Positions 233 to 44,207 of a DNA stretch of 64,000 nt are shown here, one piece after another. The stretch spans positions 45,290 to 109,289 of IMG/VR virus record IMGVR_UViG_3300032167_007466; one strand, given 5' to 3'. The position numbers were made by a program, and so were the translations under genes. The stretch's first letter is position 1. Each line of letters starts with the position of its first letter. The notes below the pieces were generated by a model that saw only the letters and a program-made list of their open reading frames with translations, searched no databases and was not told where the DNA came from. Source of the stretch: a virus (Duplodnaviria; Caudoviricetes).

Positions 233-244
233 TATATTATTCTC
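233..244 (-). promoter_or_regulatory. GAGAATAATATA motif (candidate phage-RNAP promoter)
   Basis: Exact copy of a 12-mer that recurs at intergenic or gene-end positions, oriented with local transcription. Confidence 0.55.
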
Positions 245-273
245 CATTCGAAAAGAACAATATTAAAAAATCA

Positions 274-1254
274 TCACATCATTCTCAATAAATCCCCAAC
301 ACCAAATGCAGCATTGACATAATTTCCAACAGTTGTTTCTATATCCTTATGCCCCAAATTCTGTGCCACAAACTGGATGTCTGCTCTTTTTGCCATAACA
401 GTAGAATAATAATGTCTTATCTGATGTGGAGTAATTCCATTGCCATAATTCTTAAAGATAGCAATAACTGTATCAGCCGAAATACTCGTGTTGTTTTTTG
501 TTATAAATACAGCATTGATATTTTCCACTCCGTCAATTTCTTGTCTTATCTCAAGCCATTTTTCAAGAGCAGACAACGCTGTTCCTGTTATAAATACCTT
601 TCGTTTATCATCTTCTTCATAATAACCTTTACCAAGCACAGTAATATAAGGTATATCTTCCTCAAAATGAAGGTCTGATATTTCCAATCCCGCAAGCTCG
701 CTCTCTCTTATTCCTGAACCTAAAAGTGTTTGAAGCATAGCAATATTCCGCTCTCTCACTATTTTATCCTTTTTCCATTGTATGCGTTCAAACATTTCAT
801 CTATTTGTTTTTTATCAGGCAATTTAGCATAGATATTTTCAACATTATTTTTCTTGCCTTTATAACCACATGTTTTTACCGGATTCTTTTCCAGTTTACT
901 ATTTGGAGACTCAACTAAATTTGAAAAGAAGGATGACAATATATTTTTTCGTGTTGTTAAAGTTGTACGACTCATTCCTTCTGTTTGTCTCTGTTTTAAA
1001 TATAGAAATACATCTGCCGGCTCCAGTGTGTTAAATGAATTTGGAGTTAGTTCAGAGATTCCTTTCTCCGTAATTAAAGCATTTTCCACAAGCCACAAAA
1101 GAAAATCCTTAATGGCAATATAGTAATTTCTCGCACTAGCTTTACTATATAATTTATATAAGTACTTCCGTATAAATAATGGTGTTTTATCTTTGTCAAA
1201 TTCTGCAAACAATTTATCCTCATTGTGTCTTTGAACATTGTCTTTATAACACAT
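274..1254 (-). CDS. Tyrosine recombinase (XerC/D-like), catalytic residues intact
   Basis: GIRESE (R), LGKG (K), PHQIRH (HxxR), LGH, GNY (Y). ATG at 1254 follows an AAGGAAGG RBS; the ORF track extends to TTG 1293. Confidence 0.9.
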   Translation of the reverse strand: MCYKDNVQRHNEDKLFAEFDKDKTPLFIRKYLYKLYSKASARNYYIAIKDFLLWLVENALITEKGISELTPNSFNTLEPADVFLYLKQRQTEGMSRTTLTTRKNILSSFFSNLVESPNSKLEKNPVKTCGYKGKKNNVENIYAKLPDKKQIDEMFERIQWKKDKIVRERNIAMLQTLLGSGIRESELAGLEISDLHFEEDIPYITVLGKGYYEEDDKRKVFITGTALSALEKWLEIRQEIDGVENINAVFITKNNTSISADTVIAIFKNYGNGITPHQIRHYYSTVMAKRADIQFVAQNLGHKDIETTVGNYVNAAFGVGDLLRMM

Positions 1255-1319
1255 TTTAATCCTTCCTTTCTGTAATTTAAGTATAAAAAACAACAGCCAA
1301 CCGAAATCGGCTGTTTAAA

Positions 1320-1348
1320 TTGACAAATATTTTCCGTTGTGATATAAT
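1320..1348 (+). promoter_or_regulatory. sigmaA promoter
   Basis: TTGACA (1320-1325), 17 nt, TGnTATAAT (1343-1348). Confidence 0.8.
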
Positions 1349-1448
1349 ATTGAAGACAACAACTTCAATATATAAAATGATTCAGCAAAATAAATGCTTG
1401 ACCCCGTAATGGTCGTAGGGGCATTTTATATATTTGGAGGTGATAGAC

Positions 1449-1538
1449 ATATCTAAGATTTTAATAATCTTGGGTGTATCAGCCGACATAGCCACTTTGG
1501 TTATGTTTACTGATTACATCCTTGCAAAAATCGGATAA
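1449..1538 (+). CDS. 29-aa hydrophobic peptide, type I toxin-like
   Basis: GGAGG 1436-1440, then ATA start (or in-frame GTG 1440): ISKILIILGVSADIATLVMFTDYILAKIG. Has its own promoter and terminator. Confidence 0.55.
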   Translation: MSKILIILGVSADIATLVMFTDYILAKIG

Positions 1539-1556
1539 TGTCGCAGTTGTCTGATA

Positions 1557-1588
1557 AAAGCACTTGTGAAAGCAGGTGCTTTTGTTTT
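1557..1588 (+). terminator. Intrinsic terminator
   Basis: AAAGCACTTG-tgaaag-CAGGTGCTTT followed by a T-rich tract. Confidence 0.7.
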
Positions 1589-1603
1589 GTCTATCACCTC
1601 TGG

Positions 1604-1615
1604 TATATTATTCTC
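1604..1615 (-). promoter_or_regulatory. GAGAATAATATA motif
   Basis: Exact copy, pointing antisense into the small-peptide locus. Confidence 0.55.
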
Positions 1616-1642
1616 CATAAATTTCAAGTTGAAACTATTATT

Positions 1643-1861
1643 CTATTGTGGTTTTATAACCTGAACATCTGCAATTTCATAGAAGAAAGCATCAAGCTCT
1701 CCTATATCGCCTATTAGGTCACATGAAATATGGGTTTCTGATATATCAGTAACCATACCAACATAGTTCTTTTCATCATTGTTTAATTTAATTTCAACTT
1801 TGTCACCTTGAACAACTTGAACTCCGTTAGATAATACATAACAAAATCTTGCGTTTTCCAT
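1643..1861 (-). CDS. Hypothetical protein
   Basis: ORF with RBS in the co-oriented early array. Confidence 0.7.
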   Translation of the reverse strand: MENARFCYVLSNGVQVVQGDKVEIKLNNDEKNYVGMVTDISETHISCDLIGDIGELDAFFYEIADVQVIKPQ

Positions 1862-1895
1862 AAACAAACCTCTCTTTCACTTTTGAACAATCATT

Positions 1896-2354
1896 TCATT
1901 GATATAATATTCTTTCAATATCAGAGATTATTTCTTCCATTCCCATAATATAAGCATCCTCAAATTCTTGGTCTTCCCAGTGGTTAGTGGATTTTGACTT
2001 TTTAATCTCTTCTTTCCATTGTTTTAATTTATCTTCAATTTGATTGCAAATCCAAGTATCATTATTTACTCGCTTATAACCATCTTCGCCTGTTTCTTTC
2101 CAAAACTCGCCGTCGAGCCATTTCTTTGCTTCTACTAAATCCCCTGAATTAACATACATAGTTGATAATGCCGTGTCGATTATCTTTCTACATACTTCTC
2201 TTTCGCATCCGGGAGCGCAAGTCTTCGCTAAAACAACAGGCGCTTTCATTCCGTCATACACAATAGTCAGTTTATATTTGTCGCTCAATTCTCTATCGTT
2301 TTCGATAGTCATACCCTCTTTTAATTCCTGTTTGAGAATATCTATCATTTTCAT
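1896..2354 (-). CDS. Hypothetical protein
   Basis: 152 aa, AGGA RBS. Confidence 0.75.
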   Translation of the reverse strand: MKMIDILKQELKEGMTIENDRELSDKYKLTIVYDGMKAPVVLAKTCAPGCEREVCRKIIDTALSTMYVNSGDLVEAKKWLDGEFWKETGEDGYKRVNNDTWICNQIEDKLKQWKEEIKKSKSTNHWEDQEFEDAYIMGMEEIISDIERILYQ

Positions 2355-2390
2355 ATTATCACATCCTTTTTAGGTGTTAAAACAGTAGTT

Positions 2391-2684
2391 CTATTGGCAA
2401 TCTATAAAGTTTATATCGCAATCACAACCAATAAATTGACCTCCACAAACAGGGCATCTTTCTACATCACAACCATAATGATGATAATGCCCTTTTAATA
2501 CGTTACAATCATGGCATCTTTCCCCTGTATCAAAATCATCTTCTCCGTATAGGATTCTTTTATAAATTTTTCCATTACATTCAATTTCTGAACAGCTACA
2601 TCCGTCACTTTTTAACATGCGCTGACCGCAAATTTCACATTTAGCTCCGCCTTCAGCAATAATTTCTTCTATGGTTTTATTCAT
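2391..2684 (-). CDS. Cys/His-rich metal-binding protein
   Basis: CEIC, RCHDC, HHYGCD, CPVC, CDC motifs; GGAGG RBS. Confidence 0.75.
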
Positions 2685-2720
2685 TGTATTCCCTCCTAAA
2701 TTCTATATAAAATACACGAT

Positions 2721-2915
2721 TTATTTATTCTTATCGTAATATCCGTTACCGTATCTTCTTCTGATTTCGGACTGTGAAACACCGTTACAGATGTCTCTTG
2801 TCATTTTTGAATTGTCAACATCCAGAGGATTTTTATTTTCCACTTTCTGATTAGTTGAATAACTGCAACATGCCCAAATAACCGCTATGATAATAATTCC
2901 AATTAAAGTTCCCAT
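2721..2915 (-). CDS. Small membrane protein
   Basis: N-terminal hydrophobic helix; C-terminal RRRYGNGYYD. Confidence 0.7.
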   Translation of the reverse strand: MGTLIGIIIIAVIWACCSYSTNQKVENKNPLDVDNSKMTRDICNGVSQSEIRRRYGNGYYDKNK

Positions 2916-2930
2916 AACTCATATTCTCCT

Positions 2931-3170
2931 TTACTTTTTACTTATATCAACATTTTCGCCATCATAATATCCTAATGCTCTTCTTCTATCTCTTTCCTCT
3001 CTCGGAACAGTATCTAAATCAGCCATCATTCTCTCAAAACCAATATCCTTTTTGGTCTTTTGGGTAAAATACTTTTCCGCTTGAGGCGAACTGTATTTTA
3101 CATGATTTCTGTCATAACCTTCCTTTGCCCAAGATCCTAACCCTGCCAATATTCCAAACCATCCAAACAT
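2931..3170 (-). CDS. Small membrane-associated protein, likely paralogue of its neighbour
   Basis: N-terminal hydrophobic stretch; C-terminal RRRALGYYD; GGAGG RBS. Confidence 0.7.
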   Translation of the reverse strand: MFGWFGILAGLGSWAKEGYDRNHVKYSSPQAEKYFTQKTKKDIGFERMMADLDTVPREERDRRRALGYYDGENVDISKK

Positions 3171-3199
3171 GATTTATTCCTCCTAAATTCTTTTCCTAT

Positions 3200-3228
3200 A
3201 TTATACCACAATTAACATCCTCTTGCAA
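3200..3228 (-). promoter_or_regulatory. sigmaA promoter
   Basis: TTGCAA, 17 nt, TGGTATAAT on the minus strand, upstream of 3170. Confidence 0.7.
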
Positions 3229-3403
3229 TGCTTTTGTAGTAAATTTGTGCCACTTGCTGCCGTGATTTTCCAATGATATTTCCAATCTCAGCAAAAGACT
3301 TTTTCTCCGCTTTGAGTTGCTTAACTTTATCTACCGTTCCATCTACTACAAGTTTACTTCTGTACTGATGTGGTCTTTTATATCTATGTTCATATTCGTT
3401 CAA
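3212..3403 (-). CDS. Small HTH DNA-binding protein
   Basis: KSFAEIGNIIGKSRQQVAQI helix-turn-helix pattern. Confidence 0.65.
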   Translation of the reverse strand: MNEYEHRYKRPHQYRSKLVVDGTVDKVKQLKAEKKSFAEIGNIIGKSRQQVAQIYYKSIARGC

Positions 3404-3582
3404 GCTGACACCTTCTCTCTGATATTTTCCATATGATTTTCAGTTCTCGCTTCCGCTACCAACATATCAACTAAGTCATTATAACATTCATCCCAAGTAT
3501 CACCGCTTAATACGAAATTTCCGTTGCTATCATGTACTTCATAATGTTCTTTAACTTGTACGATCCTATGTGTATTATCCAT
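3400..3582 (-). CDS. Hypothetical protein
   Basis: ORF in array with GGAG RBS. Confidence 0.65.
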   Translation of the reverse strand: MDNTHRIVQVKEHYEVHDSNGNFVLSGDTWDECYNDLVDMLVAEARTENHMENIREKVSA

Positions 3583-3584
3583 AA

Positions 3585-3761
3585 TTAAATAGCTCCCATT
3601 CTTAATTTAATCTTTATCTCTGTTAAGTCTGCAAGAGTATTCATAACTTCTAATTCATGTTCAAAATCAATGGGTTTATCAGATGTTTTCCCATAATCTC
3701 TTGCTATGATACTTCTTTGCAAGTTAGATATTTCGCCAATCGTCATATTTGATACTTTCAT
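3585..3761 (-). CDS. Hypothetical protein
   Basis: GGAGG RBS before ATG 3761. Confidence 0.65.
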   Translation of the reverse strand: MKVSNMTIGEISNLQRSIIARDYGKTSDKPIDFEHELEVMNTLADLTEIKIKLRMGAI

Positions 3762-3790
3762 ATTTGCCTCCTGTTGAAATGCGACTTCTA

Positions 3791-4075
3791 TCAAGAAATT
3801 ACCTCAAAATTGCTCTTGAAAATTTCCTCTGATATTACTTTAAACATTCTTCTATCTGATACCCTTCTGATAATATAATCAGTAGGTTTTACAACTGATT
3901 CATAATTATGATGTTCCAAATTACAAATATGTAAATCTGGCACAATTACTCTTACACATAAATCCAACTTCTCTGTTATAAACTTCTTGCATTTTTCCAC
4001 TTGTTCTGAAGTGTATTTTTCATATCTGATTGCTTCATATTCATTTTCCGTAAAAAGATTTCTAATCTTTAACAT
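3791..4075 (-). CDS. Hypothetical protein
   Basis: ORF in array with RBS. Confidence 0.65.
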   Translation of the reverse strand: MLKIRNLFTENEYEAIRYEKYTSEQVEKCKKFITEKLDLCVRVIVPDLHICNLEHHNYESVVKPTDYIIRRVSDRRMFKVISEEIFKSNFEVIS

Positions 4076-4116
4076 ATCCTCTACCTCCAATCCGATTGAA
4101 TACGAGATTTATTGCT

Positions 4117-4848
4117 TTATGCAATCTTTAATTTGCTCTGCTTCTGTTCCGTTTTATTAAGACTTCTGATATATTTTCCACCATCTTTTTCAAAGTATTT
4201 CAGATATCCTTCCTCAATCATTTCATCTGCCACTTTCAAGATATAATCAATGGTCTGTCCACCAGTATAATTCTTTCCATCATTAAGTCCTAAACGATTT
4301 AATCTAACAATTCCTGCAATATTTCTTGCTATGTCAAAAGCAGAATAATATTTTGTTGTTCTTGTTGTGGCTGCTTTTTCAAATAATACCTTGCGAATTT
4401 CCTCTTTTCTTTCGTTTAAGTATTCCTCATATTCGCTATCAGAAATAACATAAACTGTATCATGCAAGTTCACCCAACGAATAGAAGATAATTCCATTCT
4501 GTCAATGGCTTCTGCAACTTTCTTAACATCATTCTTTAAAATAACTCCGCTAATCTGTTGTGGATGTGCGTGTAAATAAGCACGTTTTTCCTTACTATGT
4601 TCCACTTTCCATCCGCTATCTTCCATAATTCCAAAAGATTCTATCAGGTTAATTGCTTCCGTTCTCCATGCCTCTCTATCTTCTGTCGTTTCAAATCTGC
4701 AATTACGGTCATATGATGGTGTATCAATATTAAAATGTACTTCTACATATTCATTTCCATAATCCATATCTGGATTCCAATTATTTGTAAGTGTATGGTC
4801 TTCTCCATAGTCATTTCCAATTCCATACTGATGATATTTAATACTCAT
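4117..4848 (-). CDS. Hypothetical protein
   Basis: 243-aa ORF with RBS. Confidence 0.8.
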   Translation of the reverse strand: MSIKYHQYGIGNDYGEDHTLTNNWNPDMDYGNEYVEVHFNIDTPSYDRNCRFETTEDREAWRTEAINLIESFGIMEDSGWKVEHSKEKRAYLHAHPQQISGVILKNDVKKVAEAIDRMELSSIRWVNLHDTVYVISDSEYEEYLNERKEEIRKVLFEKAATTRTTKYYSAFDIARNIAGIVRLNRLGLNDGKNYTGGQTIDYILKVADEMIEEGYLKYFEKDGGKYIRSLNKTEQKQSKLKIA

Positions 4849-4892
4849 ATAATCAACCTTCCTCTCTGTAAAATAGACTTAAAATTCCGATT

Positions 4893-5141
4893 TCATTGCC
4901 TATTAATTCCTAAAATTCGTTCACAAGCACTATATACAGTTTCAGTATCATCTGTATGTCCATTACACTCTTCAACAATTCTAACAATCATATCCATTGA
5001 TATATCATCAAATTTAGTGTTAAATGGATATACTTTAGATGTTTCACTTTCAAATGCAATAAAGTCAATTATATTCCATTCTTCTGTTGTCATTGGAATA
5101 TTTAATTTTTCATTGCTTGTTTTTGCCCAAGTCTGTTTCAT
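4893..5141 (-). CDS. Hypothetical protein
   Basis: GGAGG RBS. Confidence 0.7.
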   Translation of the reverse strand: MKQTWAKTSNEKLNIPMTTEEWNIIDFIAFESETSKVYPFNTKFDDISMDMIVRIVEECNGHTDDTETVYSACERILGINRQ

Positions 5142-5175
5142 ATTTTACCTCCTAATAAAATCACTCATTTATTGC

Positions 5176-5733: not shown

Positions 5734-5768
5734 CCCAACTCTCCCTCTTTAATGCCCTTTCATCTGCT

Positions 5769-12054: not shown

Positions 12055-12132
12055 TTTTTGTACCGTCCTTTTTTTAGTTTGGGTCTCAGGTCGCTGCAAA
12101 GTAATTTGTATTAACTACCCTTGACACTTACT

Positions 12133-12194
12133 ATTATAGCAAATAGAGTACACTATTTCAATAGGCAAAATAACAAAAATAGAGTACACTATTT
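12133..12194 (-). promoter_or_regulatory. Leftward sigmaA promoter with two identical 18-bp palindromic operators
   Basis: TTGAAA (12161-12156), 17 nt, TGCTATAAT (12138-12133). AAATAGAGTACACTATTT at 12141-12158 and 12177-12194. Confidence 0.8.
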
Positions 12195-12277
12195 TGTGCA
12201 TATTTACTAACAATATATTGCGTTTTATAGCACATTAAAACATATTAAACACTACATATTGTATATAGGAATGATGT

Positions 12278-12306
12278 TTGACTTTTTTAAAAAAATATGA
12301 TAAAAT
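12278..12306 (+). promoter_or_regulatory. Rightward sigmaA promoter
   Basis: TTGACT, 17 nt, TGATAAAAT. Confidence 0.65.
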
Positions 12307-12529: not shown

Positions 12530-13600
12530 TTCCCGGCTTTATGTTTTGAACTGATGAAGGATAGTTATGTTATAAAATTTAGGATATTTTTATAGGTATA
12601 ATTTATAGGATATTTTATACCTATTGTTTATAGTTAAAATTTTAAGTATATAAAATTCAAGTCTATTTTTACGAACCCGTAACCGTTCAGAATTTCAGCA
12701 GATGCAAAACTAAAAAAGCAAGTTAAAAACTTATACAGATAAAACATACTATAATAGTAATAATATTATGGTATGTTTTTTTTAATATCCCGGCTGGGTT
12801 TACATTTTAGAAACCGCATAACAGAGCCATTTTGAGCCTATCTGTTCCATCCACACGTAGACTCCCATTTCAAAACTCAATACACAAAAATAAGAGTATC
12901 AAATTCGATACTCTTTTTCTTTTACCTAAAATCCATCAAATTCATTCGATATCAACTTCGATAAAACCTCACAACAAAGCCATTTAAGGCTCTTTTTTTA
13001 TACTCAAAAATTAATTTAATTTATCAAATCTTTTAAAAATCTCAGAAAAATCAGTATCTTTTACGAAAACAGTCAATTTATATTAAATATCTTAGTCTTC
13101 TCAAAACAGAAATCTCACACAATTCCTTAAAATCTTAGTAATAATCACACTTTTATATCTAAAATATATTTAATCATCGAAGTCTGTTATTTCCATATGT
13201 GCAAAATTATTTCACAATATATTTTTATCTCATCACATTTTAGTGATCATTACAATTCAAAGCAGAAACTTAACCCTTATATCAAACCAACAGAGAATAT
13301 ATGATGTAGGGGTATATTTTACATCTAAAGCAAACTTATGACTATATAACTACCCCCCCACTCAAAAAAATGATAGACAAAAATTTTAAAACAGATATAA
13401 GATTAAAAAGAGAATAATATCTTGAGAGCAAAATTTTAACAAGAAGATTTTAAGGTGAGCGAAGCGAAACTGAATGAGCAGATTTATCTGCGAATGAATA
13501 TGTCTGTTTTATTATATAGGTGTCTATATTATTTCAGTTCCGTAAACGAGGTCTGAACCTCGTCAAAATTCTCAGATTTAAAAATTAAGTGAGGGTAAAA
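12530..13600. other. Long AT-rich non-coding region at the coding-strand switch (candidate origin or terminus region)
   Basis: No ORFs; inverted repeats near 12887-12918 and 13543-13610; two GAGAATA motifs. Confidence 0.4.
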
Positions 13601-13645
13601 CCTCGTTTGCCGTACGCAGGTGAATTTATAAAGGGAGGAATTTTT

Positions 13646-14452
13646 ATTACAAAATACATAACAAAAGAATATTTTACAAGATTTCCTAATGAGTATATAC
13701 GATGCAATATCAAGAAAGATTATGGCGTGAGTAGGAAATTTTACATCATTTATATCTTAATCGACAAGTACCGTTCTTATGAAAACTACAGTTGGATAAC
13801 TATTCGTAAGATATTAAACTTTTACGGATATAAGACAAATAAACATAAACCTAAAGCGGTATATGAAATTTTAGATGTACTGGAATATATGATTAATAAT
13901 AAAATGATTAAAGTATCGCAAGATTTAGATTCTCTTTCTTATGATACTGGCATTGAAATTGAAATCATCCCTGAAAACTTTGATTGTGCTGAAAAGTTTA
14001 CAATGATAACTACATCTCAACTAAACACAATAATGATGGCTGACAGTTCTTTAAACAAAGAGAATATATTATTGGCATTCCTTTATATCAATTCCTATAT
14101 TGGTTGTCGTAGCAAAAAAGATGACGGCACCGAGTACGAGAATGCAAAAGATAATCCTGAAGCTTTCTTTAAAAGCCTTGAATCTATGGCAAAAGAAATA
14201 TCAATGTCTAAAGAAACTATAAATCAAACTCTTGATTATCTTGTTTCTGATGAAAATCATCCTGCTTTACTTATAAGAAAAAATATTGGCAGTATTCCTG
14301 CCACAAAATCACATCCGCCTAAAAATGTTCCTAACATATATGTTTTGAATGAAAATGGATATCAACGAGAAATTAAATGGGCTTTAGATAAAATGTTAGA
14401 GGCGTATGGAGTTGAAAATTTTAACAAAGCTTCTCAAACAAACAGAGAATAA
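13646..14452 (+). CDS. Putative DNA-binding/replication-type protein
   Basis: Long ORF. GGAGG 13634-13638 favours an ATT start at 13646 (the track uses GTG 13589). Helix-turn-helix-like segment SLESMAKEISMSKETINQTL. Confidence 0.6.
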   Translation: MTKYITKEYFTRFPNEYIRCNIKKDYGVSRKFYIIYILIDKYRSYENYSWITIRKILNFYGYKTNKHKPKAVYEILDVLEYMINNKMIKVSQDLDSLSYDTGIEIEIIPENFDCAEKFTMITTSQLNTIMMADSSLNKENILLAFLYINSYIGCRSKKDDGTEYENAKDNPEAFFKSLESMAKEISMSKETINQTLDYLVSDENHPALLIRKNIGSIPATKSHPPKNVPNIYVLNENGYQREIKWALDKMLEAYGVENFNKASQTNRE

Positions 14453-14456
14453 TATA
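14445..14456 (+). promoter_or_regulatory. GAGAATAATATA motif upstream of the RNAP operon
   Basis: Exact copy. Confidence 0.55.
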
Positions 14457-14504: not shown

Positions 14505-14717
14505 ATGCAAAATGGAGATTACATAAATGACCCTTCAAGATTTGGAGGCAGGATATATTTATCGGATTTTGAAACAGATTATAGAGGTAAAGACAATACC
14601 GCCGGTTCCATTATCGCTTCTCGTATCATTTCAGACTGGCGTTTTGATGAAATGTGTAGGAAAAATTCGATTATTAGAGATAAAAAGAGCAAGAATGATG
14701 GCAAAGGAGGAAATTGA
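14505..14717 (+). CDS. Hypothetical protein
   Basis: AAGGAG RBS; stop abuts the probable RNAP start. Confidence 0.6.
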   Translation: MQNGDYINDPSRFGGRIYLSDFETDYRGKDNTAGSIIASRIISDWRFDEMCRKNSIIRDKKSKNDGKGGN

Positions 14718-14718
14718 C

Positions 14719-17346
14719 ATAGAAGCAACACAATATACACTTGTAAAGATTCCTATTAAAGAACTTATATCTCAGAATTATGAAGTAAACTTAACTCAAG
14801 AGCAGGAAATAAACAATGAATATTTGATAAAACAAGGATCTTCCCCTTTATTTGACCAAATAGAAAGACTTCGTGGGGAATTTTCAACTCACATAAATGA
14901 AATAATCCTAGTGGTTGCAAAGAAGAATCCAAGGCAGGAAAAGGATTTAAGTTATATTTTAGATAAAGGTTTTGTATATAATGGCGTGCATTATAAGCGT
15001 TTTGGAAAATCTGCCTCTCAAGGGAAAGACGGGATTACCGCATTTGTATGTGATGATATCTTTGACGAGTTATATATGGTTACACAAATGGATATTGAGA
15101 TTGAAGAGTGTGTAATATCAAAATATGAAGCACAAAGATGTCTTGTATTTAGTTCCTGTACACTCATTCAGGATTATATGCCTAACATTGTTATTATAGG
15201 AGAATATGAAAAAACACTACGAAATCAGCTAATAAAATATGTTGTTGAAAGGGAACGTGAGTTTGTCGACAAGGAAACAGGTAAAACAAAAAAATATAAT
15301 TCAAGGGAAATTGAAGAGGGTTATAAAGATTTAAAACTTATACCATTTGATGGTTGTGGATGTCACGAAAAAGAGTTTATGGAAATTACCAGCGCCCAGC
15401 TTGGACTAGATTACAATGCTATAGGCAGCCAGATAAGGCTTCCGTTTGTTAAGGGGTATTCTGTTTATGTACCATTCCGAGAAATCCTTAAAGAATGGGG
15501 ATATGAATACATAACCGATATATATGGACATAAGCATCGTATTGATACAATTGATTGTATTTGGAATACGTCTATGTTTAAAGGACATAAAATCTTCAAA
15601 GAAAAATATGGCAACGATGCTTGGATAGAATATATGAATACACTTCGTAAGTATAACTTTAAACTTGGAATAAGCAAATACAGTCATCATATAAAAAACC
15701 TTAATAAGTATACCCGTATGAATTTTCAATATTTACAGTGTTTAGATTTGTGGAATCCTAAATATATTGATTATTGCGAAAATCAAATCGTTGGAGATTA
15801 TGATATTCTTAATAACAAAAATAATGGTAAAATAATTTCGTTAGCTAAGTATACCACTTCACTTTTTGAAAAAATAATCAAAGGTGATAAGTTCTATACA
15901 TACAAATTCATGGGTATATTAGACACCGAAAGTTATGAGCCTGAAAGCAAATATCTTGAAGCTGCACTTGTCAACGATGTAATGTTAAAAGACCCTGCCG
16001 TTAAGCAGTTTATATATCGTAAACTGAAAAAGTCAATTGACGAAGCTAAAGTTGGAAAAATATATTGTTCAGGCTTTTATCATACTGGCGTTGGGGATAT
16101 GATTGGTTATTTACAATATGCGGTTGGTGAAGATCCTGTTGGATGTTTAAATGAAAGAGAGTTGTATAGTGCCAATTTTGAGTCTGGTGATATTATTTCT
16201 TTTCGCTCTCCACTTGTTGATCCTTCGGAAGTGAATAAGATACGGATTGTGCGTAATGACATCTCAAATAAATGGTTTAAACATTTTAAAGACCAAGATG
16301 TTGTTATGTTTAATATGTACGATGTGTCAGCTCCACAACAAGGCGGTGCAGATTTTGACGGAGATATATTTTTACTCTGTAATGAGCCAATAATTATTGA
16401 TTCTAAAATCGATAAGAAAATAATTATTGACATAGATGACAAAACAACTGCAAAAGCAAAACCCTACACAAAAGAAAATATTATTGAGTATGAGGTTATG
16501 ACCAGAGATAATCGTATAGGCGAGATTACAAATTCGGCAACCAGTATTGAAAATAGGTACACTACAAACGAAGATATTAAAGCCTTATATGACAATTATT
16601 CTTCCCTACTACGTGTGTACCAAGGACATGAAATCGACTTTATCAAGACCGGCACTCGATGGCAAATGACAAAGGGATTAAGAAAACATCTAAATCAACT
16701 GCCTTACTTTTTGTTGTTTAATTATCCAAAAAAGATGAAAACCTATATCAAATTAAAAGAAAAAAATAAGTATATCGAAAACCCTCAAGATAAAATCAAA
16801 TTAAACGCATATCACTCCCCTTCTCCCATGAACGAGTTGTGTGACTACGTTTGCGCTTGGGAAAAGAAAAATATATTATGGGACAACCAGTTGCAAGATT
16901 TAATTGATACAAGATGTCTTATTATAAATAACGATTTAGACTTAAACAACAAAAACGCCCTAAAAATTGCACGTAGATATGTAAATTCATACGCTGACGA
17001 ATTAAGAAAACATCTTAATATGAATAAGGACAAGGACAAATCTAATAGCGGAGACTATAAATTCGCAATGGAGAAACTTGTAGAAAAATATAAACAAAAT
17101 TTAAAACGAGATATAAGTTTAAGAGAAGAATTGGTAGCTAATTATGTAATAAAAGCATCTTATGGTAACTTTTCTATCAGCAAGTCGCTTGCTTGGTCGG
17201 CTTATGGAGATTATATAATCAAAAATTTAAAAGCAAATTCAAACCCACAAAGAAACATCTCTATAACTGAAGTCCCCTATCAAACAAATAACTCATATGG
17301 GTATCTTGGAAAGTTTTATGAGTTTAAGGAGGTTGATGTATTATAG
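14719..17346 (+). CDS. yonO: YonO-like single-subunit DNA-dependent RNA polymerase
   Basis: GGADFDGD catalytic motif (16351-16365), FRSP, DG, QIR and KG motifs; SPbeta-like synteny. Start uncertain (ATA 14719 behind GGAGG, or ATG 14695/14698). Confidence 0.88.
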   Translation: MEATQYTLVKIPIKELISQNYEVNLTQEQEINNEYLIKQGSSPLFDQIERLRGEFSTHINEIILVVAKKNPRQEKDLSYILDKGFVYNGVHYKRFGKSASQGKDGITAFVCDDIFDELYMVTQMDIEIEECVISKYEAQRCLVFSSCTLIQDYMPNIVIIGEYEKTLRNQLIKYVVEREREFVDKETGKTKKYNSREIEEGYKDLKLIPFDGCGCHEKEFMEITSAQLGLDYNAIGSQIRLPFVKGYSVYVPFREILKEWGYEYITDIYGHKHRIDTIDCIWNTSMFKGHKIFKEKYGNDAWIEYMNTLRKYNFKLGISKYSHHIKNLNKYTRMNFQYLQCLDLWNPKYIDYCENQIVGDYDILNNKNNGKIISLAKYTTSLFEKIIKGDKFYTYKFMGILDTESYEPESKYLEAALVNDVMLKDPAVKQFIYRKLKKSIDEAKVGKIYCSGFYHTGVGDMIGYLQYAVGEDPVGCLNERELYSANFESGDIISFRSPLVDPSEVNKIRIVRNDISNKWFKHFKDQDVVMFNMYDVSAPQQGGADFDGDIFLLCNEPIIIDSKIDKKIIIDIDDKTTAKAKPYTKENIIEYEVMTRDNRIGEITNSATSIENRYTTNEDIKALYDNYSSLLRVYQGHEIDFIKTGTRWQMTKGLRKHLNQLPYFLLFNYPKKMKTYIKLKEKNKYIENPQDKIKLNAYHSPSPMNELCDYVCAWEKKNILWDNQLQDLIDTRCLIINNDLDLNNKNALKIARRYVNSYADELRKHLNMNKDKDKSNSGDYKFAMEKLVEKYKQNLKRDISLREELVANYVIKASYGNFSISKSLAWSAYGDYIIKNLKANSNPQRNISITEVPYQTNNSYGYLGKFYEFKEVDVL

Positions 17347-17354: not shown

Positions 17355-18161
17355 TTGTATGAAATAATTGAAGATTATAAATCTTGTGAAAATAAAGATA
17401 ATATTTTTAATTCTTTCTGTCGCATAATTTGGCAAAGTGATAATAAGAGGAAAGTGTTTACAAAAACAATTCATTACACCGTTAGAAAAGATTTGTTAAA
17501 CACAGATGTTGGTAAAGTGTTTGATTGTTGGTCTGATGTGGAGTATAAAGGCTATAAGGCTATGTCAACTGAAAATGATTGGTGCAGTCTTATACGACAG
17601 AAAATAAACAATCTTTATACTCGATATTTTGATAAAGAAGTAATTCTTAATAAAGATTATATGCATTTATTGAACACACCAAAAAGATTATATTACAGAT
17701 GGATTGACGGAGACGAAATGGATGCTGATGAGTTGACTGTTATCATTGATGACGCGATTGACAAGGCAATTAAATTAAAACCCATATATCAAAAACAAAA
17801 GATGTCGCTATCTTGGCAGGAATATAAAACCTTGATAGAGGTGTTCCTAAGGAAGATTTTTGACAGATGCAAGACAATCAACGAGTATGAAGATAGAAAC
17901 ATTAAAATTCGGTTGTATGATTTTGCAAACGAAGATAATTTTTACATACGATATTTTTGTAAATGTCTTGAGGGTGAAATGTTGAAATATCAAAAGCAAT
18001 ACTATGGTGTAAGGGATCATAAAAAATACAAAAGGTGTAAAACTTGTGGTTCTTTAATTGAAAATGACGCAAAAAATCGCCAATATTGTGATAGTTGTAA
18101 AAAGAAAAAAAGAAAAGAAATAAATCACAATTACTACATTAAGACTGTTTTAAAATCATAG
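17355..18161 (+). CDS. Hypothetical protein with C-terminal zinc finger (possible RNAP accessory factor)
   Basis: CKTCG..YCDSC; directly after the RNAP gene. Confidence 0.7.
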   Translation: MYEIIEDYKSCENKDNIFNSFCRIIWQSDNKRKVFTKTIHYTVRKDLLNTDVGKVFDCWSDVEYKGYKAMSTENDWCSLIRQKINNLYTRYFDKEVILNKDYMHLLNTPKRLYYRWIDGDEMDADELTVIIDDAIDKAIKLKPIYQKQKMSLSWQEYKTLIEVFLRKIFDRCKTINEYEDRNIKIRLYDFANEDNFYIRYFCKCLEGEMLKYQKQYYGVRDHKKYKRCKTCGSLIENDAKNRQYCDSCKKKKRKEINHNYYIKTVLKS

Positions 18162-38827: not shown

Positions 38828-38931
38828 AATTATGAATAGTATTATTTTAAAAACTCTTTTATAGGGGAGATGCTATTCATTTCATAGTTTCTCCCCTATT
38901 TTTTACTTTTTATCGGAAGGATGTTTTAAAC

Positions 38932-39159
38932 ATAAAAACGACAAGCGAATTAACAGGAAAAGAATATGAAATGGAAGATGTCATTTGGTATGGGAACGCG
39001 TTACAGGCAGCTCAGTATTGGTTGTGGGGTTGTAAGCCCGTAGACCAGACAGTTATTCCCGACACCAAAAGATGGGCGTTTGCATTCACAAAAGATGACC
39101 ATAAAAAGTATATAGGTCGTTGGAATGAACAAAAACAGAATAAAAATACGGAGGACTAA
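38932..39159 (+). CDS. Small hypothetical protein
   Basis: AAGGA RBS then in-frame ATA 38932 (the track starts at ATG 38971). Confidence 0.55.
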   Translation: MKTTSELTGKEYEMEDVIWYGNALQAAQYWLWGCKPVDQTVIPDTKRWAFAFTKDDHKKYIGRWNEQKQNKNTED

Positions 39160-39161
39160 CT

Positions 39162-39467
39162 ATGAACAAAATAAATTTAAAGGGTATTACCTCTGAAACC
39201 GTTACAGGTATATTAATACTGCTTGTTGCTCTTATAAATGCAGTATTACAGATGTTTGGCATTAATACTTTGCCAATAGAAAACGAAGAAATATCAGTAA
39301 TCGTGTCTGGTATTTTTCTTGTAGTTGCGTCATTGTATAATACATATAAAAACAGAAATGTAACAACAGGTGCTCAGGAAGCACAACAGATTTTAGATGC
39401 TTTGAAGAATGGCACTTTGATTGTCGAAGATGTTCAGGCACTCGTCTCCAAGATTAAGAGACAGTAA
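39162..39467 (+). CDS. Holin (SPP1-like)
   Basis: Two TM helices, ALINAVL.MFG..LPI, YKNRNVT; precedes the amidase. Confidence 0.85.
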   Translation: MNKINLKGITSETVTGILILLVALINAVLQMFGINTLPIENEEISVIVSGIFLVVASLYNTYKNRNVTTGAQEAQQILDALKNGTLIVEDVQALVSKIKRQ

Positions 39468-39481
39468 GGAGATGAGTGTGT

Positions 39482-40888
39482 ATGAAAAAAATATTTATTG
39501 ACCCCGGACATAATTATTCGGGTTTTGACACAGGTGCTTCTGGTAATGGTTTGAGAGAACAAGATATAACATTTCAAATCTCTGAAAAACTTTCAAAACT
39601 TTTAAAAAACATTGGTTTTGAAGTTAAAATGTCAAGAAACAAAATAACTGATAATGTTGGAACAAGTGTCTCTTCAAGTCTAAGTCAAAGAGCTTCTTTG
39701 GCTAACAATTTTAAAGCTGATTATTTTATCTCGCTACATACAGACAGTTCAGCATCCAAGTCAGCACAAGGTTCTCATATTTGTATATATAAAAAAGGAA
39801 CGAATGCTGAAAAATTAGCAAACAAAATAAATACACAGCTACTAAAACTTGGGTTAACTGGGCGTAGTAATTTAATATCGGAAAGACCAGAATTGAGCGT
39901 GTTAAAAGCAACATCAATGCCTGCAATTTTAATAGAAATGGGTTTTATTTCTAACACACGAGATTCAGGTATACAAAAGAATAATCAAGATGGTTTAGCT
40001 AATGCAATTTTTATGGGTATTTGTGATCATTTAGGAATTGAACATACAAAGAAAGAGGAAGTTAGTGCATCTCCTTCGGCACAAACTACTATAAAAATTA
40101 ATGACAAAAAAGTAGATATACCATTTACTAATATAGATGGATCTGTTTATGTTCCCATACGGAAGTTTTGTGACTTACTTGGTTATGGTGTCGATTGGAA
40201 GGATGATACAAAAGAGATAAATATAACTACCAATAAGAGCACTACTGAAAAGAATAAAGAAATTACCCCTTCTGTTGTTCCTACAAAATATAGTGTCATT
40301 GGCACCACTCATGTTGTTGAAATAGACCCTAGAAATATTTTTCATGTAGAAACTCAGAGGGCTACAAATAAAACACCATATGATAACTTTGTAAACAGTT
40401 TATTCTTTATGCCACAAGGAAACGGCAAAGTGTTTCCCCAAGGTATGGCTGTTAATGCAGGTAAAGTTTTATCTAATTATGCAACCCATGGTAAGCCTGT
40501 TGCTACTCTCGTATGTTATGGTTGGAATAATGTACAATTAAAATATATTACCGACATCACAAAAGAAAAAGGTGTATGGTTTGCGGTCAGTGGTTATGGT
40601 GTTTATCCTAAAATTACGGCTGAAGAAGAAGGTTTTGTTGGGAAATTTTCAGACGTTATAAGGACAACCAATAGACCGATTATCGGATATAGAAAGTCTG
40701 ATAATAGAATTGTTATTGCTGTGCGTTCAGGTAGCAATGCAACTAGAGCAAGCGAAACAGCAAAAAATCTTGGTCTTGATTTTGCTATATCTCTTGATGG
40801 TGGTGGTTCTACTACCTTAAAGGTAAATGGTGAATATAAGTTTAAAGGCGACGGTAGACAGCTTTGGGGCGGTATTATTTGGAGTTAA
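39482..40888 (+). CDS. Endolysin: Amidase_3 + copper-amine-oxidase-N-like + phosphodiester-glycosidase (NAGPA)-like domains
   Basis: IDPGH, E, ISLH, ILIEMGF; YVPIR..LGY.VDW; RP.IG and LDGGGST. Confidence 0.85.
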   Translation: MKKIFIDPGHNYSGFDTGASGNGLREQDITFQISEKLSKLLKNIGFEVKMSRNKITDNVGTSVSSSLSQRASLANNFKADYFISLHTDSSASKSAQGSHICIYKKGTNAEKLANKINTQLLKLGLTGRSNLISERPELSVLKATSMPAILIEMGFISNTRDSGIQKNNQDGLANAIFMGICDHLGIEHTKKEEVSASPSAQTTIKINDKKVDIPFTNIDGSVYVPIRKFCDLLGYGVDWKDDTKEINITTNKSTTEKNKEITPSVVPTKYSVIGTTHVVEIDPRNIFHVETQRATNKTPYDNFVNSLFFMPQGNGKVFPQGMAVNAGKVLSNYATHGKPVATLVCYGWNNVQLKYITDITKEKGVWFAVSGYGVYPKITAEEEGFVGKFSDVIRTTNRPIIGYRKSDNRIVIAVRSGSNATRASETAKNLGLDFAISLDGGGSTTLKVNGEYKFKGDGRQLWGGIIWS

Positions 40889-40912
40889 TAGTGAAGGGAT
40901 GGTAGTATATGA

Positions 40913-41431
40913 ATGGAACCAATAAGAGAATTACTTAAACTTGATTTTACCGCCGTCATTCTTACAGTGTTTATTATAATGTCTGGGATAATTGCAATGT
41001 ATAGTATAATTGGCAAGTTTTCTGAGATAATCGGAAAGCCTGTTAAGTGGGTTAAACAGAGACAATTAGACCACGATTTATTAGAAAAGAATAAAAAAGA
41101 CATAAAAGACCTAAAAGATAAACACGAAGCCGATACAAAGAAATACGAAACAAGCCACCAAGAATTAATTGATGATATCAAGGGTTTAAAAGACCTTTTG
41201 CTTGATAAACAAATTTCTGACTATCGATGGGAAATAATTAATACGGCTGATAAAATTTCAAACGGAAGAATTGTTAGCAAAGAATGTCTTAAGCATGCAA
41301 TTACGACATATGACAAGTACGAGAAAATTATTGAAAAATACAATATAAAGAACGGTGAGGTCTCAATTAGTATTAAAGTAATTAAAGGCGAATATGCAAA
41401 AATATTAGCCGATGAGAAACAAGTCAATTGA
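40913..41431 (+). CDS. Membrane-anchored coiled-coil protein (lysis-associated)
   Basis: N-terminal TM helix; YEK..NG C-terminus. Confidence 0.65.
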   Translation: MEPIRELLKLDFTAVILTVFIIMSGIIAMYSIIGKFSEIIGKPVKWVKQRQLDHDLLEKNKKDIKDLKDKHEADTKKYETSHQELIDDIKGLKDLLLDKQISDYRWEIINTADKISNGRIVSKECLKHAITTYDKYEKIIEKYNIKNGEVSISIKVIKGEYAKILADEKQVN

Positions 41432-41506
41432 ATATAGGATTTAAGGAGAGGGTGTTAATTTAGGTTAGCATCCTCTTCTTCTATTATTATAAAGGATGTG
41501 AATGAT

Positions 41507-41650
41507 ATAGCAAAGAACGAAGGTAAAAAATTTGAAGATGCTTTTATTAAGTCAGTGCCGGACTATGTATTGGTCAAAAGATTGAATGACAATGCAAGCT
41601 CATGGTCGGGTGGTACAATGACAAGATTCGCATCCAAGAATGGAGAATAA
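41507..41650 (+). pseudogene. N-terminal fragment of a RecU-like resolvase
   Basis: IAKNEGKKFEDAFIKSVPDYVLVKRLND...RFASKN; truncated at the GAGAATAATATA motif. Confidence 0.6.
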
Positions 41651-42101
41651 TATAGTGAGTAGATCAAAATTTAATGTAGATAAAGATACTGAAAAACGTA
41701 CATATAACGGGATTGTTTTTGACTCTATCTTAGAGATGAAATATTATCGAGATGTACTTTGTCCATTAGTGAAGAGTGGCGATGTGGTAAAATACGAATT
41801 ACAAAAGCCATATGAGTTACAACCAAAGTTTATACACGATAATAAGTCCGTACAACCCATTAAATACGTGGCAGATTTTTTTATTGTTTACAAAGATGGT
41901 CATGAAGAAGTAATTGACACAAAGGGTTGCCCAGATAGTGTAGCAATTATAAAAAGAAAATTGTTTTGGTATCACTACCCAAATGTTAATTATAAGTGGG
42001 TTTGCTTTTCAAAAATTGATGGGGGCTGGTGTGATTATGAATACGTCAAAAAAAAGAGAGCAGAGAGAAAAAGAAATAAAAACAAAATGGAAATTTCATG
42101 A
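41640..42101 (+). CDS. DUF1064-like PD-(D/E)xK nuclease
   Basis: SKF..YNGIVFDS..E..Y, LQ..YELQP, YVADF, IDTKG; start may be GTG 41655. Confidence 0.8.
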   Translation: MENNIVSRSKFNVDKDTEKRTYNGIVFDSILEMKYYRDVLCPLVKSGDVVKYELQKPYELQPKFIHDNKSVQPIKYVADFFIVYKDGHEEVIDTKGCPDSVAIIKRKLFWYHYPNVNYKWVCFSKIDGGWCDYEYVKKKRAERKRNKNKMEIS

Positions 42102-43233
42102 TGGAGAAAATATTAAAGACGACAAAAGAAATTTAACGATTTTAGCTAAAGAAACAAAAGATTATTTGTACGGCAATTATATTTACAAACAAAAATGGTA
42201 TAAGTTGCTGTGCAATAAATGTGGGTACGATTCAATTTACATTGATGAGTCCCATTTATCTCAAGGTAGAGGATGTCCCGTATGTAGCGGAAGAAAAGTT
42301 GCAGTTGGAATTAACGATATAAACACGACGGCAAATTGGATGCTACAATACATAAAAAACAAAGAAGATGGGAGTTTGTACACAAAAACTTCAAATTCAT
42401 ATATCGATTTTAAATGTCCTGATTGTGGAGATATTTCTTCGCAAAAAATTTCAAATGTCTATAATTTTGGATTTCGATGTAAAAACTGTCGAGATGGAAT
42501 ATCATACCCAAATAAATTTTCATATGAGTTTTTAAGGCAGTTACCTGTACAAAATGTTTGTCATGAATATATTCCTGATTGGGGAAATGGCAAAAGATAT
42601 GACAATTACTTTGAGTATGATGGTGAAAAATATATACTAGAAATGGATGGTGGCTTTCATTATCAGTACAATACTTTAAACAAAAAGACGGCAGACGAAG
42701 AACAAAAAAATGATTACATAAAAGATTTGTTAGCTAAAAATCATAGCATTACTGTTATTAGAATTAAAAGTGTTAAGAACGAATTGAATTATATGAAAGA
42801 ACAGTTTGAATCTAATGATATACTTAACTCTATGTTTGATTTAAGCAATATTGATTTTAAAAAATGCCATGAGTTTGCTATGTCTAATCTTTCAAAAGAA
42901 GTTTGTGATTATTATAACCATTGTCAAAGTGTTAATGGATGCATTGAAAAATTTGGACTAGCAAGAATAACTATTTTAACTTATTTAAAAAATGGTTATG
43001 TTTTGGGATGGGGTGACTATACCCCACAAAAATCATACAAACAACGCTCTTTAAATAGGAAATCAAAGTCTATTTCAATTATAAAAGATGGCGAAGAAAT
43101 TATATATGATTCTACTAAACAACTATGTTTTGATATAAAACATAAATTTGGGATAGATTTGAAAGTACAAGGGGTAAGAAATGCTGCGAGAGAAAATATA
43201 AAATATAAAAAATGTATATTTAGATATGTTTAA
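42037..43233 (+). CDS. Zinc-ribbon-repeat endonuclease (very-short-patch-repair/DUF559-like), homing-endonuclease-like
   Basis: CNKCG, CPVC, CPDCG, CKNC; RYD.Y..ILEMDG..H; D.IKD.LA....VIRI. Confidence 0.7.
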   Translation: MNTSKKREQREKEIKTKWKFHDGENIKDDKRNLTILAKETKDYLYGNYIYKQKWYKLLCNKCGYDSIYIDESHLSQGRGCPVCSGRKVAVGINDINTTANWMLQYIKNKEDGSLYTKTSNSYIDFKCPDCGDISSQKISNVYNFGFRCKNCRDGISYPNKFSYEFLRQLPVQNVCHEYIPDWGNGKRYDNYFEYDGEKYILEMDGGFHYQYNTLNKKTADEEQKNDYIKDLLAKNHSITVIRIKSVKNELNYMKEQFESNDILNSMFDLSNIDFKKCHEFAMSNLSKEVCDYYNHCQSVNGCIEKFGLARITILTYLKNGYVLGWGDYTPQKSYKQRSLNRKSKSISIIKDGEEIIYDSTKQLCFDIKHKFGIDLKVQGVRNAARENIKYKKCIFRYV

Positions 43234-43350
43234 TCAATCAGCAAGAGTGATGTTTTGAAAATGAACCCTATTGAAATTGATAGCGAGTTGTTAAGAACAA
43301 ACTATCGCTATGATATAGAAAAATTTTTAAAAGAAACGAGGTTATCTTGA
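43234..43350 (+). pseudogene. C-terminal fragment of a RecU-like resolvase
   Basis: SISKSDVLKMNPIEIDSELLRTNYRYDIEKFLKETRLS; begins right after the nuclease stop codon. Confidence 0.5.
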
Positions 43351-43351
43351 A

Positions 43352-43540
43352 TTGTTTTATCCTTTTTTCTGCCCAAAATGTGGGCACACTGAGACGATAT
43401 CCATGAGAATTACAGAATACGTCGCAACGGGTCATGAGTGCCCTACCTGTAATACAGAAATGAAACGAGACCCGAAATCGCTTTGCTGTGGAATGACTGT
43501 AGACAAAACAGGAACGTTCTTTAAGAAAGTTACATTTTAG
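43352..43540 (+). CDS. FmdB-like zinc ribbon protein
   Basis: YPFFCPKCG...CPTC. Confidence 0.7.
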   Translation: MFYPFFCPKCGHTETISMRITEYVATGHECPTCNTEMKRDPKSLCCGMTVDKTGTFFKKVTF

Positions 43541-43580
43541 GGTTAATAGAAAAATAAAAATTGAAAGAGAGGTGTATCAA

Positions 43581-44138
43581 ATGGTTTTAAAAATGTCAAA
43601 AGATAAGACCTTGGTGATTACAAAGTCAAGTACTACATATAAAAATGAACACAACGCTGAGACAATCAAAATCATTATGCCGAAACAAATTGACGGTAAA
43701 GATTTAAAGCAGTGTTCAATTTGGTTAAGTTTTATGAACGAAGAGAAACTCGGCAGAGCTATTGATGTGACACAGTTTTTAACAGACTACTCCCCTATCT
43801 ACTACTATATCGAGATACCGCTGGACAACATTTTCACTTATGTTGCTGGTAAAGTTCAAATATGGTTGAAGATATTGGATAGTCAAACCGAAATGGTTGA
43901 TTTCACCAATTATGTTACTCACTATATTCACAAGCATCCCGATGAAGAACTTGAGGGCGAAGTGACTGAGCAGGAACGTTCTGTATTGGAAAATCTGGCA
44001 TTAAAACTTGATGCGACCTCTATTCAGTTAGGTGAAGTAACCGCTAAAGTTGAGGATATTGATGAATATGTAAGCGAATTACAAGAGGGTGAAGTTATGT
44101 TGGTTCAGCCTATGCTTACTGCAAAAATACAGGAATAG
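43581..44138 (+). CDS. BppU-N-like tail/baseplate protein
   Basis: Beta-rich N-terminus (..FTYVAGKVQI), coiled-coil C-terminus. Confidence 0.5.
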   Translation: MVLKMSKDKTLVITKSSTTYKNEHNAETIKIIMPKQIDGKDLKQCSIWLSFMNEEKLGRAIDVTQFLTDYSPIYYYIEIPLDNIFTYVAGKVQIWLKILDSQTEMVDFTNYVTHYIHKHPDEELEGEVTEQERSVLENLALKLDATSIQLGEVTAKVEDIDEYVSELQEGEVMLVQPMLTAKIQE

Positions 44139-44195
44139 GTGTTGAAATGCCAGTTTCATGGTGATTTATTTTATTATTCTCTCTTATGTAAAACG

Positions 44196-44207
44196 GAGAA
44201 TAATATA
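44196..44207 (+). promoter_or_regulatory. GAGAATAATATA motif
   Basis: Exact copy; back-to-back minus-strand variant at 44171-44181. Confidence 0.55.

Follow-up and report, generated by a model that had tools for sequence, protein, structure and literature searches.

Does the 12-bp motif GAGAATAATATA, which recurs along a tailed-phage provirus encoding a YonO-type RNA polymerase (RNAP), mark the promoter of that polymerase? The motif was noticed in a 64,000-nucleotide stretch of IMG/VR virus record IMGVR_UViG_3300032167_007466 (Duplodnaviria; Caudoviricetes). The record is a single provirus of 109,289 bp (34% G+C), of which this stretch, hereafter the window, comprises bases 45290-109289; positions refer to the window unless they are given as genome positions. 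No smaller relatives of the cellular multi-subunit RNA polymerases are known than the YonO-type enzymes. The characterisation of YonO from phage SPbeta left its promoter and factor requirement open (PMC5467207), and our literature searches found no later definition of a promoter for this polymerase family. An earlier note on the window had proposed that the motif is the promoter of the phage RNAP. Its promoter-like nature is supported by the results below, while for its assignment to the YonO-type RNAP we infer, at about even confidence, that the motif is read by this enzyme, possibly together with p268, the product of the gene following the RNAP gene.

All six exact copies that had been reported were found at their coordinates and strands (Table 1), against 0.06 expected in the window, and none of 100 shuffles gave six. 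The near copies fared less uniformly: those at 13410, 24257 and 44170-44181(-) carry one mismatch each, whereas the one at 13293 is degenerate. The rest of the record holds three more exact copies, at genome 9616(-), 11118(-) and 14061(-), giving nine in the 109-kb provirus, and a one-mismatch copy at genome 33552(-). When 10-mer words were ranked by over-representation, GAGAATAATATA came out on top in the whole genome and in intergenic DNA alike. A weight matrix, trained on the same 12 sites that it separates, set 12 discrete sites of 26-31 bits apart from all other matches, which scored at most 17.8 bits and were mostly ordinary ribosome-binding sites. Each of the 12 sites has the direction of the gene arm in which it lies, minus on the left and plus on the right, and none falls inside a long gene, which bears out the intergenic or gene-end placement and the orientation with local transcription described earlier. 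The conserved block extends over about 18 bp, A-N-R-GAGAATAATATA-N-T, with an A three bases 5' of the motif at 12/12 sites, and GAGAAT is invariant across the sites, with no drift toward TATAAT. Identity among the 12 sites was 0.68 in the core and 0.30 and 0.27 in the flanks, against 0.28 expected. Since the flanks are at chance identity, the sites are not segmental duplications, and we take the motif to be a short element under selection.

The sites do not resemble sigmaA-type promoters. A scan upstream of the 12 sites found no -35-like hexamer common to them; the best upstream 6-mer, present in 10 of the 12, was equalled or exceeded in 83 of 200 shuffles, so that the absence of an obvious -35 noted earlier holds. 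The -35/-10 spacing of 16-18 bp expected of sigma-70 (sigmaA) promoters was not found at the motif sites, and a sigmaA consensus scan gave only 9/12 matches there versus 10-11/12 at the divergent promoters of 12121-12306. The latter segment carries the near-palindromic operator-like word AATAGAGTACACTATTT twice and no motif copy, and is likely the early lysis-lysogeny switch. Nor do the sites behave as ribosome-binding sites. A Shine-Dalgarno-like core 5-10 nt before a real open reading frame (ORF) start was found at one of the 12 strong sites, 41643 with its GTG, which agrees with the earlier remark that the motif is mostly not followed by a start codon; downstream of the remaining 11 there are stops, tiny ORFs or RNA genes. 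The preceding stop codon is 0-60 nt away from several copies, and some of the sites precede genes with 5' leaders of 35-56 nt.

The units that follow the sites include RNA genes. The genome 11118 copy stands ahead of two tRNA genes (10946-10642), and a predicted structured RNA (minimum free energy, MFE, fold) begins directly after the 24041 copy, in front of a cluster of non-coding RNAs (ncRNAs). The RNAP operon opens with the small yonP-like ORF, and the 14445 copy precedes the ATG of this ORF by 48 nt. About 300 nt separate the 1604 copy from the recombinase gene 274-1293(-) downstream, and the 44196 copy stands ahead of the tail module; a cytosine methylase and a TnpB gene are further downstream units. 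The 233 and 1604 copies are followed by terminator-like hairpins 13-20 nt downstream.

We further studied the motif in relatives whose RNAP is 65-77% identical. These are prophages of Lachnospiraceae, including Lacrimispora and Roseburia metagenome-assembled genomes, and IMG/VR proviruses, so the host is a Clostridia gut bacterium and not Bacillus; megablast of the RNAP region against deposited phages found no near relatives. The earlier note had proposed a motif search in other yonO-carrying phages, and one was made in these relatives. A shorter family motif, ANR-GAGAAT-WA, was 4-8 fold enriched and almost always co-oriented in six RNAP-bearing relatives (whole records), whereas the exact 12-mer recurred among the relatives only in L009, where an identical 16-mer precedes the small ORF and RNAP at the equivalent position. 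When one mismatch was allowed, the relatives' genomes gave counts close to those of the controls. In other lineages the yonP-like/RNAP operon is preceded by a GAGAA(T/A) core whose 3' half differs. In three relatives (G4, G8 and G9) GAGAAT stands 9-10 nt before the mature 5' ends of tRNA-Gln or tRNA-Thr genes, two of which were confirmed by Infernal. An element fixed that near an RNA gene points to a start-site-proximal promoter core; a downstream TATAnT was rejected as the -10, because the tRNA in the relatives begins too near it. In the host chromosome of one relative, ANR-GAGAAT-WA had 131 matches versus 99 for the control over 5.4 Mb. This is no enrichment, which indicates that the element is phage-specific; the same element in host genes, as expected of a sigma-70 promoter, was not found in this genome, which carries a related prophage. 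Taken together, the discrete, strand-specific intergenic sites, their location ahead of tRNA and ncRNA genes, the GAGAAT-tRNA spacing in relatives, a position like that of the SPbeta YonO start and the lack of enrichment in one host chromosome support a promoter-like nature of the motif.

The candidate enzyme is about 23% identical to SPbeta YonO and 27% identical to Thomasclavelia phage proteins. The RNAP start had been placed at 14719; the codon there is ATA, which is no start codon, and the probable start is ATG 14695 or 14698, where the gene overlaps the last part of the small ORF before it. The gene for p268 starts with TTG at 17355, without an obvious Shine-Dalgarno sequence and 8 nt past the RNAP stop. 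The frame overlap and this start context suggest translational coupling along the small-ORF/RNAP/p268 operon. The neighbourhood is SPbeta-like, with the small ORF, RNAP, an exonuclease, an HU-like protein and tRNA/ncRNA genes followed by terminase, portal and head genes. Apart from the RNAP, no transcription enzyme was detected in the record, which is partly annotated, and no Sigma70 Pfam domain was found there.

The p268 gene follows the RNAP gene in 16/16 relatives that reach that far, and also in two remote lineages, where stop and start overlap. Its product ends in a CxxC...CxxC four-cysteine zinc ribbon, and the AlphaFold model is confident (pLDDT 88). In a structure search against representatives with VIA-align, sigma region-2 was the commonest class of top matches (sigB, SigI, sigK and extracytoplasmic function (ECF) sigmas), with 85-89 residues aligned at Z 5-7.1, although Z 5-7 is within the range possible by chance for helical proteins. 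A language-model search gave a weak lead to a viral cluster partly carrying Sigma70_r2 (score 0.83). A sequence profile search of the PDB matched the zinc ribbon only, tblastn found no match in deposited phages, and the protein that Thomasclavelia phage TR-TP1 encodes at this position is not similar to p268; in metagenomes p268 has about 1,500 homologues. The sigma-like reading of p268 is a weak lead from modelling, and would fit a -10-like box without a -35. The earlier idea that the 17355-18161 product acts with the RNAP gained support from this constant linkage and from the weak sigma-region-2-like fold, while p268 remains a candidate initiation or specificity factor.

On these grounds we propose that the motif would form the core of a phage-specific promoter without a -35. 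The A-N-R-GAGAAT block would be the recognition element and the AT-rich AATATA after it the site of DNA opening, with transcription starting about 7-10 nt past GAGAAT, at or just beyond the end of the 12-mer, where T and purines would be preferred; predicted RNA structures (MFE folds) begin directly after the 12-mer. The twelve promoters would start middle and late units on both arms: the tRNA genes; the ncRNA cluster and then the head genes; the tail module; the integrase, methylase and TnpB units; and the small-ORF/RNAP/p268 operon, whose upstream copy makes the positive feedback suggested earlier plausible. p268 would act as the partner of the YonO-type RNAP and supply the -10-like recognition. 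The phage RNAP is favoured because it is the sole transcription enzyme detected, because no Sigma70 Pfam domain was found, because copies occupy an SPbeta-like YonO start position, and because copies stand just before terminators. Copies directly upstream of intrinsic terminators would only make sense for a polymerase that ignores such terminators, and YonO-type enzymes are expected to read through them: the discussion of the YonO paper implies that enzymes of this type are without the flap domain that it links to hairpin termination (PMC5467207). The boldest form of the proposal is a tentative one that we regard as possible though unlikely. It holds that the GAGAAT box is the first defined promoter of a YonO-type RNAP, recognised through the sigma-region-2-like domain and zinc ribbon of p268, in a minimal 'core plus sigma' arrangement where a -10-like element alone directs a terminator-ignoring 100-kDa polymerase.

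Several points weigh against assigning the motif to the phage RNAP. Sequence tools do not decide which polymerase reads it, and both initiation at the motif and its dependence on the RNAP are argued from sequence. The enzyme is only about 23% identical to YonO, and half of the sites lie in the replication/accessory-gene arm and not in the late arm. SPbeta YonO was reported with one start site and one late operon (PMC5467207), and the element repeated upstream of yonP in SPbeta is SPBRE, the operator of MrpR, rather than a promoter of YonO (PMC10516654). In the relatives, the exact 12-mer is shared with L009 only, a common Shine-Dalgarno context (GGAGAATAA / AAGGAGAATAA) inflates the counts of the short family motif, and the variant GAGAAAGATACA upstream of RNAP in the Roseburia prophage is at most at control level in that genome and is not repeated. 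For p268, the structural Z scores fall in the chance range given above, and Pfam, Foldseek and hhalign returned nothing significant.

The alternative that survives best, which we consider unlikely, is that the host RNAP core, redirected by a phage factor, reads the motif as a phage-specific promoter; the factor could be either p268 or a divergent ECF-like protein of 183 aa, and the YonO-type RNAP would use a different, possibly single-copy promoter. If the host enzyme used the copy ahead of the RNAP operon, this would explain how the RNAP gene is first transcribed, and SPbeta YonO was reported to use a single start site. The box itself would suit such a system, as GAGAAT retains two key -10 positions (A at 2 and T at 6) with no -35, and so would p268, whose best structural matches are sigma region-2 domains without region 4 and whose language-model look-alikes partly carry Sigma70_r2. 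In the relatives a Sigma70_r2 domain does exceed the Pfam cut-off, and this phage (G0) has a split homologue of that protein with a sub-threshold ECF match. However, the relatives' domain is fused to a GmrSD-like nuclease, so that a role in defence seems likelier for the protein than one as a sigma factor, and the Sigma70 Pfam search gave no match in this record. Moreover, p268 always lies directly after the phage RNAP, with stop/start overlap in the remote lineages, which points to the phage enzyme as its partner, and two sites stand just before intrinsic terminators that host RNAP should obey. The genes in question lie at genome 36481-38642(-) (L052:16481-18642), where the 183-aa protein, with its sub-threshold ECF-sigma/LuxR helix-turn-helix signal, adjoins a GmrSD-like (DUF262) protein. 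A single frame of about 720-760 aa, with the Sigma70_r2 match, unites both parts in G7, G8 and G9; in G8 and G9 the tRNA-Gln with the motif before it lies about 150 nt upstream of this fused frame.

It is quite improbable that the motif is not a promoter at all but the operator of a phage regulator, either an analogue of the MrpR/SPBRE system or an activator site. The two elements are alike in being repeated, asymmetric, about 15 bp long and intergenic, with one copy upstream of the yonP-like ORF, in a yonP-RNAP-HU-exonuclease module that is syntenic with SPbeta. SPBRE as derived from the yonP, yonT and yonX upstream regions reads ACAAATACAAATAATATGTATATAA, and AATAATAT is common to both motifs. 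This phage also has two tyrosine-recombinase-family proteins, with a motif copy after each. Yet neither recombinase has BLASTP similarity to YopR/MrpR, and both keep the box residues R/H-x-x-R/Y including the tyrosine. SPBRE lies inside -35/-10 promoters, while the present sites are without a sigmaA promoter and, instead of being confined to early sigmaA promoters, stand ahead of tRNAs and ncRNAs and in the late arm. The GAGAAT core is 9-10 nt away from tRNA 5' ends in the relatives and so takes the place of the promoter core, and the early switch has its own separate palindromic operator pair.

We regard as very improbable an action at the RNA or translation level, whether as a Shine-Dalgarno-like GGAG plus spacer (for binding, standby or decoy) or as a signal for processing or antitermination: ribosome-binding contexts of the form GGAGAATAA-N4-ATG are frequent in relatives, the 41643 copy with its GTG can double as Shine-Dalgarno and spacer, the weaker copies at genome 12452 and 34964 are true ribosome-binding sites, and many sites lie 0-60 nt past a stop codon, two of them ahead of terminator hairpins, but 11/12 strong sites have no long ORF at ribosome-binding distance, half of the sites have A and not G before GAG, sites stand ahead of tRNA and ncRNA genes, and a fixed spacing of 9-10 nt to the relatives' tRNA 5' ends has no translational meaning. 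Three further candidates were rejected. The -10 pattern RNNGAAT of SigmaH fits, but there is no AGGA-type -35 at the right distance; the end of an insertion sequence or miniature inverted-repeat transposable element was discarded because the downstream hairpins are unlike in sequence; and as a recombination site, twelve direct repeats would delete the intervening genome segments.

Table 1. Motif copies and neighbouring features in the window
Feature	Position	Strand	Remarks
Terminator-like hairpin	181..220	-	-15 kcal/mol, U-run; begins 13 nt downstream of 233 copy
Exact copy	233..244	-	30.1 bits; 30 nt past stop of tyrosine recombinase gene 274-1293(-)
Terminator-like hairpin	1556..1583	-	about 20 nt downstream of 1604 copy
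Exact copy	1604..1615	-	26.1 bits; 28 nt past stop of 72-aa gene
Divergent canonical sigmaA-type promoters	12121..12306		TTGACA-17-TAGAGT, TTGAAA-17-TATAAT, TTGACT-17-TAAAAT
Degenerate copy GAGAATATATGA	13293..13304	+	four mismatches or one deletion; ACA-GAGAAT core retained
One-mismatch copy GAGAATAATATC	13410..13421	+	26.9 bits; 185 nt upstream of 281-aa gene 13607-14452
Exact copy	14445..14456	+	29.4 bits; includes TAA stop of 281-aa gene
Small yonP-like ORF, 70 aa	14505..14717	+	homologues upstream of RNAP in L002, L011, L014, L016, L017
YonO-type two-barrel single-subunit RNAP	14695..17346	+	Pfam RdRP match; DFDGD metal motif; probable start ATG 14695 or 14698
p268, 268 aa	17355..18161	+	conserved neighbour directly after RNAP; no Pfam family
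Exact copy	24041..24052	+	26.5 bits; 26 nt past stop of recombinase gene 22999-24015
One-mismatch copy GAGAATGATATA	24257..24268	+	26.9 bits; ahead of ncRNA cluster
ncRNA cluster	24269..24914	+	downstream of 24041 and 24257 copies; late genes from 25041
Weaker drum-like match	24541-24647	+	in ncRNA cluster
drum RNA (Rfam RF02958)	24698-24801	+	53 bits
Short tRNA-like gene	24856-24914	+	in ncRNA cluster, between RNAP module and late genes
Exact copy	41643..41654	+	28.2 bits; ahead of DUF1064 / resolvase-like gene, GTG start 41655
Weak antisense near copy GAGAATAATAAA	44170..44181	-	13.3 bits, one mismatch
Exact copy	44196..44207	+	30.6 bits; 56 nt upstream of ATG of 89-aa gene 44264-44533

Some further observations concern the surroundings of the sites. 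The 44170(-) and 44196(+) copies form an inverted pair 14 nt apart, a weak antisense copy with a strong sense one, which is the sole such arrangement in the genome. The recombinase genes 274-1293(-) and 22999-24015(+) share no BLASTP similarity with each other, and a motif copy lies 26-30 nt past the stop of each. The second recombinase is 76-78% identical in L002 and L004, where no motif copy was found after the conserved gene. Downstream of the genome 33552 copy, the TnpB / IS605 OrfB-like gene (Cas12f-like TNB domain) lies at genome 32144-33079(-) (L052:12144-13079), and a tRNA-Glu gene is present at 20866-20940. In the relatives L009, L012 and L016, GAAC-N4-GTTC (LexA-box-like) pairs were found where the early switch would be.

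Other repeated words were also seen in the relatives. The most divergent, G5 (L026-L032), has few GAGAAT sites; its intergenic DNA holds at least 10 copies of a sigmaA-like word, TTGTAAATTGTATCT...AAAAAAT, plus the palindrome GTTGAAATTTCAAC (e.g. at 50949, 80646 and 92494), which may be a promoter/operator set of its own. A remote lineage with the RNAP-p268-HU module (L089:2420-9500) has the intergenic word ATAATTAATAA in at least six copies in 10 kb, often directly after stop codons. In G4, TAGAAGAGTA was over-represented, and L022:2035-2103 of the same relative matched a type-P5 twister ribozyme at 52.9 bits. The over-represented words AGAATTAA and AAGATTGGGAA of the relatives were set aside as coding words. 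The looser pattern GAGAATAA-N0-4-ATAT, seemingly enriched in G6 and G7, on inspection consisted mostly of ribosome-binding sites.

The prophage family is abundant in gut Lachnospiraceae, and it offers a mutable 18-bp candidate promoter with twelve natural copies, plus a conserved candidate initiation factor. Together these make the YonO promoter question directly testable in vitro, and a compact system for orthogonal transcription in Firmicutes may come of them. If the host RNAP reads the motif, Clostridia phages would instead have a new late-promoter system of the gp55 kind.

Several known systems bear comparison. Late promoters of phage T4 consist only of a -10-type box, TATAAATA, read by the minimal sigma gp55, and T4 late transcription uses the host RNAP core plus gp33 and the sliding clamp. 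The present motif is likewise a compact -10-type box without a -35, in many copies, and has a candidate minimal sigma-region-2-like factor in p268. Unlike T4, this phage has its own RNAP, and the candidate factor gene adjoins the RNAP gene. Promoters of the T7/SP6 class are about 23 bp long and end in TATA just before +1, and the T7-type enzymes are unrelated, right-hand polymerases. A precedent for the proposed reading comes from the single-subunit two-barrel RNAPs gp96/gp64 of phage P23-45, which use compact conserved motifs immediately before the start site, as cappable-seq and ChIP (chromatin immunoprecipitation) confirmed (bioRxiv 10.1101/2022.12.01.518664). Both classes share with our motif a conserved start-proximal element without a -35, multiple co-oriented copies and an AT-rich stretch near the start, whereas the P23-45 motifs differ from ours in sequence.

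Within SPbeta, two elements can be compared. SPBRE occurs in about 10 copies of a 15-bp asymmetric sequence, intergenic and co-oriented with the downstream genes, one of them upstream of yonP-yonO; ChAP-seq (chromatin affinity purification sequencing) shows MrpR binding, and the reported peaks are all at early or lysogeny-control genes, with none in the late operon (PMC10516654). The motif described here is similarly a multi-copy, AT-rich, asymmetric, intergenic and co-oriented element with a copy upstream of the yonP-like/RNAP operon. SPBRE differs in having another sequence and in being embedded in sigmaA -35/-10 promoters of early genes; in this phage, BLASTP of the two recombinases detected no MrpR homologue, and the motif also precedes tRNA, ncRNA and late genes.

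The second element is the promoter of YonO itself, P_YonO. The mapping of its start site did not extend to its sequence determinants (Forrest et al. 2017, PMC5467207), so that no sequence comparison with the motif is possible. By our reading of the printed sequence, the SPbeta primer-extension amplicon is without GAGAAT; the start was placed only within this amplicon and not to the base. SPbeta has one such start site, as against twelve sites on both arms here, and no p268 gene after yonO. In both phages, however, a small-ORF / RNAP / HU / exonuclease module includes the gene for a YonO-type two-barrel RNAP. Transcription by YonO in SPbeta starts ahead of an ncRNA and yonK (PMC5467207), and the 24041 and 24257 copies occupy the same relative position, ahead of ncRNAs and the late structural (head) genes.

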